64,000 bases of DNA from the sequence record OP555982.1; one strand, 5' to 3'. The position numbers and the translations under genes were made by a program. This stretch comes from Escherichia phage vB_EcoM-UFV11. Below, piece by piece: positions 11,696 through 61,380 of this stretch. The notes beneath the pieces are model-generated. The model did no database searches and was not told the DNA's origin. It was given only the letters and a program-made list of their open reading frames with translations. Each line of letters opens with the position of its first letter. Position 1 is the stretch's first letter.

Positions 11696-12298
11696 TTATA
11701 GATTAAATCCTTCAAAATCAAGAGTATAGATAGTGTATGTTGAATACTTTTTATACTCATATCTATCTGCAATTCTAAATACACTTCCAGCTGGTATCAT
11801 TACTTCTTGTTCATCTGAAACTAATTCCATATTACGATAACGATGGCTATCCGGAAACTTAAAGTTTGGATTGTATTCTTTACAGCGTAGAGCTTTTATA
11901 GCATACTCCTGGAAATTGAATACCATAGGAGCTTTGAATTCAAAAATAACCTGTGTGTTATACTCTAAACCAGAAGCAAAATGTAGAGCTATATTTTTAT
12001 CATATGAAGCTGATACGACTTTATCAAATGTAATAATATCAATTCCTTGATTTAACACCTGCTTAGTCTCAGCTGGAACACCTCTCCAAAGAGGTTTATC
12101 GTTTGGAACCAAACGAGATTTGATTATTTCATTTAACCAAGTATGGTCATCTGGTTTGTTGGTAATACAATGAATTAAAAGTTCAATTTCAGATAAATTA
12201 AACCCTTCAGAAAGTAATTCTTCACGAATAGAAGCACGCACCGATGCATCCATTGATTTTATTTTAAAATCTTTTAGTTGCATTACTGAGTATTTCAT
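11696..12298 (-). CDS. modA: ADP-ribosyltransferase ModA (200 aa)
   Basis: 200-aa ORF MKYSVMQLKDFKIKSMDASVRAS; T4 order. Confidence 0.8.
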   Translation of the reverse strand: MKYSVMQLKDFKIKSMDASVRASIREELLSEGFNLSEIELLIHCITNKPDDHTWLNEIIKSRLVPNDKPLWRGVPAETKQVLNQGIDIITFDKVVSASYDKNIALHFASGLEYNTQVIFEFKAPMVFNFQEYAIKALRCKEYNPNFKFPDSHRYRNMELVSDEQEVMIPAGSVFRIADRYEYKKYSTYTIYTLDFEGFNL

Positions 12299-12918
12299 TC
12301 AACTACCTCAATATCATAAACTTTAAATGTTCCAAATGAATCGTGTAATTTTTCTTTTGAAATAGAAGTTATTCTATACTTTCCAATTGGAATCATCCAT
12401 TCTTGTTCACGCACAATCATCATTAAGTTATCAGTACGCTCTGAATCTAACCCATCAGTATCTTCATATGTATACTTAAACTCAGTATTAGGAGAAGAAA
12501 GTATAATATCGCTGATATGGTCAGAGTAATTAAAAGCTTTATCAGTTTTTAAGCGAAGTATTGTTTCAGTGAAATATTCAGCATAAGAAAAAGAACACGC
12601 TGTATGCAAACTAGTAGTAAATGAATCTACCCTGTTCGTTGAAAACACTTCTCCAACTTGTAAATCTTTAATGAGTTCTTTTGTCGATTTTGATATACCA
12701 CGATATAATTGATAAGGCGATTTAGTTAAATGCTTTTTAATGATTTTATTCAACTGTCTGTGAAGAGCTTCATTCTTTTTGGCTTCCATACATTGCCAAA
12801 GAATTGACTGTTCAAAGTCAGTAAATTTTTCACAGACCTTTTTATACATATCATATTGAAAATCAACGCTTTCGGCTTTTATAGATAACTGTTCAACATC
12901 TGCAAGATTAATAATCAT
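12295..12918 (-). CDS. modB: ADP-ribosyltransferase ModB (207 aa)
   Basis: 207-aa ORF adjacent to and similar in architecture to modA; SD GGAGG. Confidence 0.75.
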   Translation of the reverse strand: MIINLADVEQLSIKAESVDFQYDMYKKVCEKFTDFEQSILWQCMEAKKNEALHRQLNKIIKKHLTKSPYQLYRGISKSTKELIKDLQVGEVFSTNRVDSFTTSLHTACSFSYAEYFTETILRLKTDKAFNYSDHISDIILSSPNTEFKYTYEDTDGLDSERTDNLMMIVREQEWMIPIGKYRITSISKEKLHDSFGTFKVYDIEVVE

Positions 12919-17520: not shown

Positions 17521-17877
17521 TTAACCTCTATTCATAAAAGCATTAAAAATTTGGTCATCAATCGATGGAATAGCAACTTTTTCTGCATCATTTAGCAAAT
17601 CATTAATTTCATCAGATAGCATAACACATGTACCTTTATTTCCTGTAATTGTTACTGCACAATTACGAACGTTTTCTTTATTAAATTTTAGGTTAATATT
17701 TTCGTAATGAAAATCCTTTAATGCTGAATATATTTTTAAAATAAAATTGTCTTTTACTACAATAAACCCAACCTCACTATTAAAACGTGGTTCATGGAAA
17801 CTGTAATAAACCTTTTCATCTATAAAATCGTATGAAATTTTTTCCATTTTTAAATATGAAAATTCAGAACTATACAT
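17521..17877 (-). CDS. hypothetical protein, paralog of 17879-18520
   Basis: 118-aa ORF; C-terminus SIDDQIFNAFMNRG shared with neighbour. Confidence 0.55.
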   Translation of the reverse strand: MYSSEFSYLKMEKISYDFIDEKVYYSFHEPRFNSEVGFIVVKDNFILKIYSALKDFHYENINLKFNKENVRNCAVTITGNKGTCVMLSDEINDLLNDAEKVAIPSIDDQIFNAFMNRG

Positions 17878-17878
17878 A

Positions 17879-18520
17879 TTAACCTTTATTCATAAAAGCA
17901 TTAAAAATTTGATCGTCAATAGAAACTTTTACTTTAGGATGTTCTTCAAACGGTAATTCATATCCACATATTACAATTTTGTGATCGATACCAAAATACA
18001 CAGAAGCAATATGATTAATATTATTTTCAGTGAAATCTAAATCAACATCAATATCTTTTTGACTAACGCTCAAAGGATAATTAATACGAATAATTCGATT
18101 ATCTTTAACAAAGATTCCACCGACATACTCTGTGTTGCGTTTAAAGTTTACACGTTTCCTAAATGAAAAATATTCAGGTTCTTTATGAGCCCGACTCATA
18201 GGACACAATGAGTAGCTAGAATAAGAGATGTCAAATCCTACACCTTCAATATGAGCCAACGTGTCATGATTAAACCAATTATAATCATACGCCAAATCCA
18301 TTATATTGTAATATGTGAAAGGCACCGGATTAACATCATATATTGTACCTTTAAAATCTGCCCAGGCAACGATTTCATTATCTTTAACAATTACAAAAAT
18401 TGTGCCAATAAGATATCCACGGTTATTTTCATCAGGCGTTATATTATAACATTGTGCATCAGGAAATTTACCGTATTTAAACGGTGGATTTTTGTGCATA
18501 TAATAAATCATATTATTCAC
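17879..18520 (-). CDS. hypothetical protein
   Basis: 213-aa ORF; C-terminus VSIDDQIFNAFMNKG. Confidence 0.55.
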   Translation of the reverse strand: MNNMIYYMHKNPPFKYGKFPDAQCYNITPDENNRGYLIGTIFVIVKDNEIVAWADFKGTIYDVNPVPFTYYNIMDLAYDYNWFNHDTLAHIEGVGFDISYSSYSLCPMSRAHKEPEYFSFRKRVNFKRNTEYVGGIFVKDNRIIRINYPLSVSQKDIDVDLDFTENNINHIASVYFGIDHKIVICGYELPFEEHPKVKVSIDDQIFNAFMNKG

Positions 18521-57992: not shown

Positions 57993-58178
57993 TTAAAGCG
58001 TATTCACATAAGCTATTAATTCATTTTCTTTCTTATCAAACCGATCAGCAAATTCTTCCTGCTGCTCGGGAGATAGCGGGCCGTATTCATCATAAAAGGT
58101 GTTTGCTTCTATATGCTCATCTAGAAGTTCATGGATAAGCTCAAACAATTTATCTTTTTGTTCTTTGCTTAGACTCAT
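57993..58178 (-). CDS. hypothetical acidic protein
   Basis: 61-aa ORF. Confidence 0.5.
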   Translation of the reverse strand: MSLSKEQKDKLFELIHELLDEHIEANTFYDEYGPLSPEQQEEFADRFDKKENELIAYVNTL

Positions 58179-58348
58179 ATATTAATTTCCAGGAGTTTTA
58201 AAATAATTCGCTTTTGCTTAAATATTTCCATAGTTAAATGACCAGTATCTTTTTGACCGATTCCAATGGCAAAACCTTTATTAACAGCGAGTTCAATTAA
58301 ATTATCAAGCTCACGTAACACTTCGTATTGTAACTCAAAACTATTCAT
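58175..58348 (-). CDS. hypothetical small protein
   Basis: 57-aa ORF coupled at both ends (ATGA overlaps). Confidence 0.35.
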   Translation of the reverse strand: MNSFELQYEVLRELDNLIELAVNKGFAIGIGQKDTGHLTMEIFKQKRIILKLLEINI

Positions 58349-58557
58349 TTTGGTTTACCTTCTTTAACGAAATCAGGATAAGGGTAAAATCCTGAATAAA
58401 ATCCTTCACCTTTATGATTGATGCATCCTTTATTAGAACAATAGCACCAATAATCGAAATCACAAGCCATTTCATCGTTGCATAAAGCAAAAACAACCGG
58501 CCACTTACACTTTTCACAGTGGGCATTTTTAAGAATACTAGTTTGGCTCATAACCAT
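58345..58557 (-). CDS. hypothetical Cys-rich protein
   Basis: ATG at 58557; CEKCKW...CNDEMAC...CYCSNKGC. Confidence 0.45.
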   Translation of the reverse strand: MVMSQTSILKNAHCEKCKWPVVFALCNDEMACDFDYWCYCSNKGCINHKGEGFYSGFYPYPDFVKEGKPK

Positions 58558-58760
58558 GTAACCTTTAAGCAATATTCTTCTACATGTTGTTTACGACCTT
58601 TCTTATCAATAAAGGTATATTCAACGAATGTTCCAATGTAGTCTTTATCTACATCATGTGGACTATTAATTGGACATTTAGTACGGCAAATGCGTTCCCA
58701 TTGACGAATAATTTCCACTTTGTTTTTAGGATCAAACGGATGTGGGTAATGTACTTTCAT
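58548..58760 (-). CDS. hypothetical protein
   Basis: 70-aa ORF. Confidence 0.45.
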   Translation of the reverse strand: MKVHYPHPFDPKNKVEIIRQWERICRTKCPINSPHDVDKDYIGTFVEYTFIDKKGRKQHVEEYCLKVTWL

Positions 58761-59211
58761 AATCCACCACTATTAAATCAATATCAGGAGTAAACATGTC
58801 GATTAATTTAGAAACCTTATCCCAATCGCCGCCAGCAATACCACAACCTATGCGTGGAATGTAAATTACTGGTTTAAACAAAAGGGTTTCTGCCTGTAGA
58901 TTTAATTCTATCATGCAGTTTACTAAAGCACCATAATCAAGATTAGGACCTGGTTCGTATTGCGTATACAAGTTATAACATATGCCAAAACCATTAGGTT
59001 TATGTTTAAAAACAATAGACATATCGCCTAATTTATCACGAGAACCGTACTCGGTAGTGGTTTTATCTATTTCTAAAATTTTGGGATAGGCTCTTGCTAA
59101 TTGACCAGCTACACCACTGCCCATTGTATGAAAACAATTGCACCCGTGCGCAATAATATTACCTTCAAGAAAGAGGGCGACAATATCGCCCTTGATATAT
59201 TTTACAATCAT
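58732..59211 (-). CDS. putative macro-domain protein (ADP-ribose binding/processing)
   Basis: 159-aa ORF; HGCNCFHTMGSGVAGQLA and IGCGIAGGDW motifs resemble macro domains. Confidence 0.5.
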   Translation of the reverse strand: MIVKYIKGDIVALFLEGNIIAHGCNCFHTMGSGVAGQLARAYPKILEIDKTTTEYGSRDKLGDMSIVFKHKPNGFGICYNLYTQYEPGPNLDYGALVNCMIELNLQAETLLFKPVIYIPRIGCGIAGGDWDKVSKLIDMFTPDIDLIVVDYESTLPTSV

Positions 59212-59555
59212 CTAGTACTCAATCCTCGATTATAAGAATCTACCAAACGGTCAACCATTGAATGACAAGCGGCTTTATCTTTCTCCTCCGCAACTGAACA
59301 TTCTAAGGTATTCCACTTTTTAGCATATCGTTTTAATAATGTATCGTTTTTGTATCTGCTTGATTTATCTCTTTCTCCGTCTTTATATGCATATATTAAT
59401 TTCTGCGCAAATTCAGCTTGGCATGCTTTATTTTTCCCACAATAATCTGCCGCAGTGCGGTTCACATACTCCCTAATTTCAGTATATGATGTATCTGCTG
59501 ACGCATAAGCAGAAAATGAAATTAATCCTATACATAAAACCAAAATTTTAGTCAT
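59208..59555 (-). CDS. hypothetical secreted protein
   Basis: 115-aa ORF with signal peptide MTKILVLCIGLISFSAYASA. Confidence 0.5.
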   Translation of the reverse strand: MTKILVLCIGLISFSAYASADTSYTEIREYVNRTAADYCGKNKACQAEFAQKLIYAYKDGERDKSSRYKNDTLLKRYAKKWNTLECSVAEEKDKAACHSMVDRLVDSYNRGLSTR

Positions 59556-60093
59556 TTACTATTTCCAAAAGTTTATTATTTTTAAGGTAGTTAGCCTTTT
59601 CTAGGACTTCAGAAGCATATTTAGAACCTGCTTTAACATTCCATCCCGAATTATAAGAGGATATTGCTTTTCTTATATCGCCCTTATGTATATTTAACCA
59701 ATAAGAAAGTTCAATGTACGCCCAGGAAGCTGAATTGGATCGTTTATTCAACATTCTTTTTATTTCAGCATCGGTCATATTATAACCAAGTTCCTTAACT
59801 CTTGCTCGCATAGTAGGCAAATAATTTTGGAACATTCCATAAGCGTGATGCTTTGGTTTAGATTTTAAATTAACTCCGCCAGAGCTTTCTTGCCATAAAA
59901 TAGCAGCCATTATATGACCTAATCCGCTCTTGTGGATATTTTTATGTGTTTTATATTTTCCATCCTTAGAAAACTGTTCCCCGAATTGATACGCGTAACG
60001 CATGTTATCGAGTTGGACATTACTGAAAGTATGCTCGGAGCTATGTGCCATCATTGAAATGGCCAATAGACCAGCGAGTAGTGCTTTTCTCAT
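59548..60093 (-). CDS. putative secreted lytic transglycosylase-like protein
   Basis: 181-aa ORF; signal peptide; WQESSGG...YGMFQ resembles SLT catalytic motif. Confidence 0.5.
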   Translation of the reverse strand: MRKALLAGLLAISMMAHSSEHTFSNVQLDNMRYAYQFGEQFSKDGKYKTHKNIHKSGLGHIMAAILWQESSGGVNLKSKPKHHAYGMFQNYLPTMRARVKELGYNMTDAEIKRMLNKRSNSASWAYIELSYWLNIHKGDIRKAISSYNSGWNVKAGSKYASEVLEKANYLKNNKLLEIVND

Positions 60094-60100
60094 GCTTACC

Positions 60101-60562
60101 TCATTGAGTTTTAATTACTGCTTTAGAAGCCTTTCCTGGTAAACGACGACTGTTAATAATTGCCATCCTGCATTGAAGCGACGGGTCTTTGAACTTCGCA
60201 TTAGGTTTACAAACTGTAAATCCAAGCCAAAGATTTCCATCTGTGATTTCTAAACGTCCAGGACGATATTCAACCCCATCAATAAAATCCTCGTCAATGT
60301 CAGGACGCGGAGGCATACTCAGGAATTCATTAACTTCTAAAACATGGTCTTTTATTTTATGGAATAATTCAAAAACGTATGTCTCATCAATCTCCCGTTG
60401 AATTGCGCGATCAAGAAGATGTTGAGAATATTTTAGATGAAACGATGAGACCCCTGCTGCTTTTGATGCCTCACGAATCTCATTGTTAATTTGACGAAAC
60501 TCCGACTCAAAGTGACGACGAAGCTTATTTCGACGGATAAAAACTTCTGTGTTGATAGTCAT
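60101..60562 (-). CDS. regB: endoribonuclease RegB (153 aa)
   Basis: 153-aa ORF MTINTEVFIRRNKLRRHFESEFRQINNEIREASK. Confidence 0.9.
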   Translation of the reverse strand: MTINTEVFIRRNKLRRHFESEFRQINNEIREASKAAGVSSFHLKYSQHLLDRAIQREIDETYVFELFHKIKDHVLEVNEFLSMPPRPDIDEDFIDGVEYRPGRLEITDGNLWLGFTVCKPNAKFKDPSLQCRMAIINSRRLPGKASKAVIKTQ

Positions 60563-60589
60563 GTTATTCTCCTCTTAACTGATAGAAAA

Positions 60590-60619
60590 ATTATACCACA
60601 GTCAAGAGGAAAAGTAAAC
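60590..60619 (-). promoter_or_regulatory. T4-type early promoter
   Basis: minus strand GTTTACTTTTCCTCTTGACTGTGGTATAAT upstream of regB. Confidence 0.55.
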
Positions 60620-60621
60620 AG

Positions 60622-60942
60622 TTATTCTTTAAATCTAATCAATTTATTCATAGACTTTGAAACTTCTGTACGAACCTCATGTAGATTTTTGAGTTGTTCA
60701 AGACGCTGCGTATAGTAAGCAATTTCATCTTCTTCGAGACAGTCCTGTGAATCTTCTTTAAGATAGCGTGCATAGTCCTGGAAAGCGTTACGGATTACTT
60801 CCTGGAAATCATCAAGACTTTGAATTTTCTTAGGAGCAGCAGATACACGACGAGGGGCAGTATAATACTCATAACCAAACCCTGCGCTTAATTGAGCCAT
60901 TAGTATTTTTCCTCTGGTTGGAACACAGCACGACAAGCCCAC
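60622..60942 (-). CDS. hypothetical protein
   Basis: 106-aa ORF. Confidence 0.5.
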
Positions 60943-61202
60943 ATACTGGCTTCTTTGAGTTTCGTTTTAGCAATAGTTAACTGATCGAGGCTTTCGGCGT
61001 AATTCTTCGCGAGTTCATCATCTTCACAGCTATCAAATGCTTCCCAAAATTCATCGTATAAAGCATCAAAGATAAGTCCTAAACGAACTTCAGCGTCTTT
61101 AATAGCATTTACTTTACCGATTTTTTCGTCGGTATGTGGCTTATAACCTTTAATATCTTCAATCATATTTGACTTCCTCACCAGTACATAAATCGTATTC
61201 AA
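60900..61202 (-). CDS. hypothetical acidic protein
   Basis: 100-aa ORF. Confidence 0.5.
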
Positions 61203-61380
61203 CTAAACGAATAGGTTCATGAATGCCATATCCCTGAACAGAAATTTCTGTCGTAGGATAAATTCCATCAATATCACCCATATTCCAGGCTTCGTTAAAT
61301 TGCTGTTCGCCTGAATTACTAAACCACTCGGCGAAAGCATTTAGCACATCTTTAGAACCTTCAATAATTATCTTTGCCAT
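61159..61380 (-). CDS. hypothetical protein
   Basis: 73-aa ORF. Confidence 0.45.
   Translation of the reverse strand: MAKIIIEGSKDVLNAFAEWFSNSGEQQFNEAWNMGDIDGIYPTTEISVQGYGIHEPIRLVEYDLCTGEEVKYD

Follow-up and report, generated by a model that had tools for sequence, protein, structure and literature searches.

What does a small macrodomain-like protein do in a phage that also encodes two ADP-ribosyltransferases of its own? The question is raised by an open reading frame (ORF) in a 64,000-nt stretch of phage DNA (hereafter the window). An initial annotation had noted glycine-rich motifs of the macrodomain kind in its product and had proposed a phage-encoded reader or eraser of ADP-ribose, one that could either tune the phage's own modification of its host or counter host defences that act by ADP-ribosylation. 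The ORF is present at the proposed position: it opens with ATG, encodes 159 aa and lies on the minus strand, which the annotation had left unstated, and the same interval read on the plus strand is stop-rich throughout. Both quoted motifs are found in the product: residues 22-39 read HGCNCFHTMGSGVAGQLA, and residues 121-130 read IGCGIAGGDW. The gene and its immediate neighbours are as follows:

59208..59555, minus strand: vs, valyl-tRNA synthetase modifier, directly upstream; product 99.1% identical to T4 Vs
58732..59211, minus strand: tk.4/adfM, 159-aa stand-alone macrodomain protein of the TARG1/DarG/SCO6735 (ALC1-like) class
58548..58760, minus strand: tk.3 (DUF7202), directly downstream; Pfam DUF7202 at E 1.2e-37, product 92.9% identical to T4 Tk.3

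The source of the window is a Tequatrovirus, a T4-like phage: the 3.4 kb surrounding the ORF show 100% identity to vB_EcoM-UFV09, an Escherichia phage, and to its relatives, and 95-99% identity to several hundred Tequatrovirus genomes. Local gene order (rI, rI.1, tk, small ORFs, tk.3, tk.4, vs, vs.1, regB) is identical to that of T4, and because this order is kept and the ORF falls between tk.3 and vs, we identify it as tk.4. Its product is 58% identical to T4 Tk.4 across all 155 aa of the T4 protein (E 4e-70); with the phage JS98 tk.4 product, the identity is 94%. Full-length similarity and the conserved order tk.3, tk.4, vs, vs.1, regB make it an ortholog of the T-even AdfM (T4 Tk.4), which it resembles in its place between tk.3 and vs, in size (159 versus 155 aa) and in sharing H22, G23, N25, Q84, G122 and G124; the phosphate loops of the two proteins read GCGIAGGDW in the window and GAGIGKGNW in T4. 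Homologs were found in 2773 of 50,697 phage records, from phages whose hosts span many genera (Escherichia, Klebsiella, Salmonella, Pseudomonas, Vibrio, Acinetobacter and others).

The feature is thus real and already known: it is tk.4 (AdfM), the macrodomain gene of the T4 family. GenBank records label it variously as 'putative macro domain protein', 'phosphatase' or 'Appr-1-p processing domain protein', and the T4 reference record has 'phosphatase; contains A1pp phosphatase motif'. With an A1pp or macrodomain label already in place in the T4 reference and in many GenBank records, and with the role of the T4 gene published in 2025, the value of the gene as a discovery is small.

The fold was assigned by several routes. 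Tk.4 matches the Pfam Macro family (PF01661) over profile positions 2-117 of 118 with an E of 6.2e-8 and a score of 33.1 bits (gathering score, 22 bits), and its match to PHROG 335 ('phosphatase') has an E of 1.6e-71. A profile of 100 Tk.4 homologs, compared with PDB sequences, recovered BT1257 (E 1.5e-18) and TARG1 (E 1.8e-16). AlphaFold2 run on the single sequence gave an unusable model (pLDDT 37); the model that we used instead, based on an alignment of the 100 homologs, reached a pLDDT of 94.2 and a pTM of 0.89 and has the three-layer α/β/α architecture of a macrodomain. When this model was compared with the PDB using Foldseek, TARG1 ranked at the top (E 2e-9, TM 0.72-0.82), followed by Poa1p, BT1257 and DarG macrodomains. 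The glycine-rich loops for the ADP-ribose diphosphate are also in place, with M30-G31-S-G33 and I121-G122-C-G124 aligning with their counterparts in TARG1, DarG and SCO6735, and with G31, G33, P119 and G122 invariant in the eight-sequence alignment described below. Matches of this quality to macrodomains lie far outside what chance would produce. Pfam, the homolog profile and AlphaFold2 all agree with the initial description of a macrodomain-like protein, and structure prediction with Foldseek, which the annotation had suggested as a check, returned the macrodomain fold.

The closest structural and sequence neighbours of Tk.4 are members of the ALC1-like/TARG1-like class (TARG1, DarG, SCO6735 and Poa1p). 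The sole PADLOC match was to DarG (4.3e-7), and the best NCBIfam match was antitoxin_DarG (1.4e-6), through its macrodomain part only. From the Foldseek, PADLOC and NCBIfam results we therefore place Tk.4 as a stand-alone macrodomain of the ALC1-like class rather than as a DarG antitoxin. The possibility that it is the DarG antitoxin of a DarTG2 system was rejected: the match to the NCBIfam DarG model (NF048014) scored 27.8 bits over model positions 2-142 of 338, the macrodomain only and far below the cut-off of 250 bits; no darT lies next to tk.4, an orphan whose neighbours are vs and tk.3; and Q84 stands in place of DarG K80.

The active site separates Tk.4 further from DarG. We aligned eight sequences (window Tk.4, T4 Tk.4, BT1257, SCO6735, TARG1, the DarG proteins of Mtb and T. 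aquaticus, and PhiKZ AdfM), with the PDB sequences as given in HMMER alignments and that of PhiKZ AdfM as published in its paper. The key residues of the window protein are H22, G23, N25, Q84, G122 and G124, with loops G31-x-G33 and G122-C-G124. Lys-type macrodomains carry a catalytic lysine after a β-strand, in a 'PTK' or 'ITK' motif; in the column of that lysine (TARG1 K84, DarG K80, FPTK in PhiKZ AdfM), Tk.4 has Q84. Glutamine occupies the same column in both T-even proteins (NLYTQ) and also in BT1257 and SCO6735 (NMIGQ, Q85), and the catalytic dyad of TARG1, K84/D125, reads Q84/A126 in window Tk.4. Among the 100 closest homologs Q84 is invariant, as are H22, G23, N25, C26, G33, A35, D49, N80, Y82, P119 and W130, and the set of H22, N25, G122 and G124 is invariant or nearly so. 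Window residues H22/G23/N25/Q84/G122/G124 correspond to H24/V25/N27/Q85/G126/G128 of SCO6735; Tk.4 thereby has the residues of the Gln-type subclass (SCO6735/BT1257), namely the glutamine, a positioning asparagine, a conserved histidine and two glycines.

The resemblance to this subclass is incomplete. SCO6735 (Streptomyces coelicolor) and BT1257 (Bacteroides) are 26-27% identical to window Tk.4, and both are cellular rather than phage proteins. Their mobile loop is 5-6 residues longer and bears lysines, whereas Tk.4 is without this loop and shows a six-column gap opposite it; K34 of SCO6735, which like the loop supports DNA binding, is S32 in the window protein. In the comparison with Poa1p, in which H23, S30 and F152 have been probed by mutation, H22 falls opposite H23 and T29 opposite S30, while the C-terminal part aligns weakly.

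Among Gln-type members, the biochemistry is that of SCO6735 only (PMC9411070). This enzyme takes thymidine-linked ADP-ribose off DNA more efficiently than DarG or TARG1, and it rescues both E. coli and S. coelicolor from DarT; its Q85A mutant is inactive and N27S nearly so, and the chemistry proposed for it is lysine-independent, with a water molecule held by the V25 backbone (PMC9411070). By analogy, catalysis by Tk.4 is probably of this lysine-independent type.

The idea that the phage protein counters host ADP-ribosylating defences matches what was found for the T4 ortholog. Transposon sequencing of a T4 library propagated on a host expressing DarTG2 singled out one gene as significantly conditionally essential, tk.4, and T4 became sensitive to DarTG2 once this gene had been cleanly deleted (bioRxiv 10.1101/2025.11.20.689424). 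The authors noted a structural likeness between T4 Tk.4 and Mtb DarG, inferred that T4 Tk.4 removes ADP-ribose from DNA, and named the gene adfM, for anti-DarT factor macrodomain (bioRxiv 10.1101/2025.11.20.689424). Their analogy with Mtb DarG is inexact, because Tk.4 is without the DarG catalytic lysine. T4 without adfA and adfN had been found to remain fully resistant to DarTG2, and because resistance was kept a further anti-DarT factor was predicted (PMC11825919); the tk.4 finding filled this gap. AdfA, the product of gene 61.2, represents another anti-DarT factor family of T-even phages (PMC11825919), and the window holds a homolog of its gene:

17882..18511, minus strand: homolog of T4 gene 61.2 (adfA); tblastn, 72.9% identity over 210 aa to T4 gp61.2

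With tk.4 and the 61.2 homolog, the window thus has at least two genes from families of known anti-DarT factors. A weaker second match to 61.2 lies just downstream, at 17524-17817 (34% over 103 aa).

On this evidence, the window gene is likely to be the tk.4/adfM ortholog in function as well as in position, an orphan gene whose product, a macrodomain enzyme resembling an antitoxin, would shield the phage against DarTG2-type systems. Judged by its sequence, the window allele would do the same job as the T4 allele, the one for which the genetic requirement is known, and by analogy with SCO6735 that job would be the enzymatic removal of ADP-ribose from thymidine. The active-site match to SCO6735 makes hydrolysis of the ribose-thymine bond without a catalytic lysine, on single-stranded phage DNA modified by DarT2, the best-supported mechanism. 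In such a scheme, host DarT2 would modify thymidines of single-stranded phage DNA with ADP-ribose at N3, and replication would stall. Tk.4/AdfM, probably made early as part of the regB-vs.1-vs-tk.4 string of minus-strand genes, would hold the ADP-ribose moiety in a macrodomain cleft built from the G31-x-G33 and G122-C-G124 loops. The distal ribose would be oriented by Q84, which N25 keeps in place; a water held by the backbone near H22/G23 would initiate the reaction; and hydrolysis of the ribose-thymine bond would restore unmodified DNA. Several points count against this reading. The window allele is only 58% identical to the tested T4 protein, it is without the K34 and lysine-bearing mobile loop of SCO6735, and some members of the class differ in substrate: the PDB entries for Poa1p call it an ADP-ribose-1''-phosphate phosphatase, and proteins are substrates of TARG1.

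A second phage protein bears the same name. AdfM of the jumbo phage PhiKZ, a chimallivirus, is gp104, likewise a phage-encoded stand-alone macrodomain, DarG2-like, that counters DarTG2; it strips DarT2-made ADP-ribose from DNA in vitro and rescues cells from DarT2 (PMC13309987). The asparagine is common to the two proteins (N23 in PhiKZ, N25 in the window). In contrast to window Tk.4, PhiKZ AdfM is Lys-type, with an FPTK motif, and it matches Mtb DarG at E 9e-25. The best BLASTP segment between it and window Tk.4 spans 23 residues (E 0.001), and with alignment limited to that segment and the FPTK lysine on the PhiKZ side, we rejected membership of the two in one family. From the kinship of PhiKZ AdfM with DarG and its poor alignment to window Tk.4, we conclude that the name AdfM spans two independently recruited macrodomain lineages, and the T4 and PhiKZ proteins probably differ in chemistry. 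The PhiKZ paper makes no mention of T4, Tk.4 or a catalytic lysine (PMC13309987).

The alternative raised by the initial annotation, that the protein acts on the phage's own marks, depends on two genes located elsewhere in the window:

11696..12298, minus strand: modA (ADP-ribosyltransferase), 200 aa, 99% identical to T4 ModA; PHROG 832
12295..12918, minus strand: modB (ADP-ribosyltransferase), 207 aa, 97.6% identical to T4 ModB; PHROG 832

Identity to the T4 proteins and membership in PHROG 832 ('RNA polymerase ADP-ribosylase') bear out the naming of both genes at 11696-12918. With ModA and ModB intact in the same genome, Tk.4 could in principle erase or read the marks that ModA, ModB or Alt leave on targets including RNA polymerase alpha, S1 and EF-Tu, and so tune the timing of host takeover; SCO6735 and TARG1, moreover, act on protein substrates too. 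Yet tk.4 lies 46 kb from modA/modB, with no genomic linkage or shared organization, and neither gene position nor macrodomain class revealed a connection between them. Alt and Mod marks are arginine-linked, whereas the substrates on record for the TARG1/DarG/SCO6735 class are thymine- and uracil-linked nucleic-acid ADP-ribose and acidic-residue esters. The tk.4 phenotype in the T4 screen, too, was specifically on DarTG2 (bioRxiv 10.1101/2025.11.20.689424). Macrodomains for arginine-linked ADP-ribose do exist, Legionella MavL being an example, and for this reason we regard tuning of the phage's own modification as very improbable rather than impossible.

Two further readings keep the macrodomain but change what it does. 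Tk.4 might hydrolyse small ADP-ribose derivatives: like Poa1p, it could be a phosphatase for ADP-ribose-1''-phosphate, or it could deacetylate O-acetyl-ADP-ribose, or break down immune signals or toxins derived from ADP-ribose; degradation of immune signals has been argued generally for phage macrodomains (PMC9503650). We think this unlikely, although Tk.4 may have some side activity on small molecules: 'A1pp phosphatase' and similar annotations are homology labels and not tests, the sole experimental phenotype of the ortholog concerns a DNA-modifying system, and the invariant Q84/N25 pair fits an enzyme shown to be active on thymidine-linked DNA marks. Neutralization might instead be non-catalytic, with Tk.4 binding DarT2 directly, or binding ADP-ribosylated DNA or ADP-ribose without hydrolysis. 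The replacement of the DarG/TARG1 catalytic lysine by Q84 speaks for this, as does the strong inhibition of DarT in vitro by the dead Q85A mutant of SCO6735 (PMC9411070), and the sharply bounded divergence of the allele, described next, is the pattern expected if an interface with variable toxins were under selection. But Gln-type SCO6735 is a very efficient hydrolase (PMC9411070), the invariance of the histidine, asparagine, glutamine and two glycines in 100 homologs suggests a conserved active site and not a binding surface alone, and Tk.4 is without the C-terminal DarT-binding domain of DarG, all of which makes binding without hydrolysis quite improbable. The preferred reading is still that of an enzyme that removes ADP-ribose from DNA.

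The window gene departs from T4 within narrow limits. In 60-nt blocks, DNA identity to T4 is 95-100% through vs, falls to 42-83% from about 59195 to 58729 (tk.4), and returns to 85-100% in tk.3. The encoded proteins show the same profile, with 99.5% identity for tk, 92.9% for tk.3, 99.1% for vs and 100% for vs.1, against 58% for Tk.4. At the level of sequence, this is an allele swap at tk.4 with sharp boundaries, of the JS98 type. As a tentative extension, one that we rate as rather unlikely, the divergent allele could be a specificity variant, and not the outcome of a neutral exchange, directed against other ADP-ribosylating toxins than those met by the T4 allele, by direct toxin binding (as seen for dead SCO6735) or by additional removal of uracil-linked ADP-ribose from RNA; T-even phages would then have exchangeable 'AdfM cassettes' matched to variants of host toxins. 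Removal of uracil-linked ADP-ribose from RNA has been reported for TARG1, for TARG1-like macrodomains including SCO6735 and, less efficiently, for DarG.

The tk.1/tk.2 interval of T4 is also replaced in the window (57993-58572, minus strand). It contains a 61-aa ORF just 54% identical to T4 Tk.2, together with a 57-aa ORF (58175-58348, minus strand) and a cysteine-rich 75-aa ORF (58345-58572, minus strand) that had no match among the T4 proteins of the region. The ORF finder gave the 75-aa ORF a TTG start; a related phage record has a shorter CDS of 70 aa.

Genes around tk.4 are tightly packed. The TGA stop of vs overlaps the tk.4 ATG in the sequence ATGA (59208-59211), which suggests co-transcription and translational coupling, and the start of tk.3, the downstream edge of the divergent cassette, overlaps the 3' end of tk.4 by 29 nt. 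Packing of vs, tk.4 and tk.3 in this way is typical of T4 early genes. A promoter and terminator scan of 58400-61300 found 8 promoter-like sites versus 10.9 expected from shuffled sequence; because the scan was uninformative, only gene packing and the overlapping stop and start suggest that tk.4 is transcribed together with regB, vs.1 and vs. The best sigma-70-like promoter in the region lies just upstream of regB (60590-60618, minus strand), where a 17-nt spacer separates TTTACT from a TATAAT that has a TG upstream. An early transcript covering regB, vs.1, vs and tk.4 could start from it, in a region where the count of such sites is not above the shuffled expectation. Within tk.4 itself, codons 7-13 (KGDIVAL; 59174-59192) contain a perfect 8-bp G+C-rich palindromic hairpin, AGGGCGATATTGTCGCCCT, that the scan flagged as terminator-like on both strands.

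In minimal medium, no T4 gene was depleted more strongly than the neighbouring vs (HIDEN-SEQ preprint), and polar effects of insertions in vs and tk.4 may need care in the reading of such screens. Public labels in this part of T4-like genomes also call for attention. In public annotations (JLBYU24, 2750-2962, and T4, NC_000866), Tk.3 (Pfam DUF7202) appears as 'putative ABC transporter ATP-binding protein' and small mobD.x ORFs as 'molybdopterin-guanine dinucleotide biosynthesis protein MobD', and several records give vs as 'valyl-tRNA synthetase'; these are apparent name-driven errors.

For specialists, the residue comparison places the T-even AdfM with SCO6735 as a glutamine-type macrodomain and not with the lysine enzymes of the DarG type. 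The gene tk.4 itself behaves as a swappable, divergent cassette in a backbone that is otherwise nearly identical to that of T4, as would be expected of a gene engaged in an arms race.
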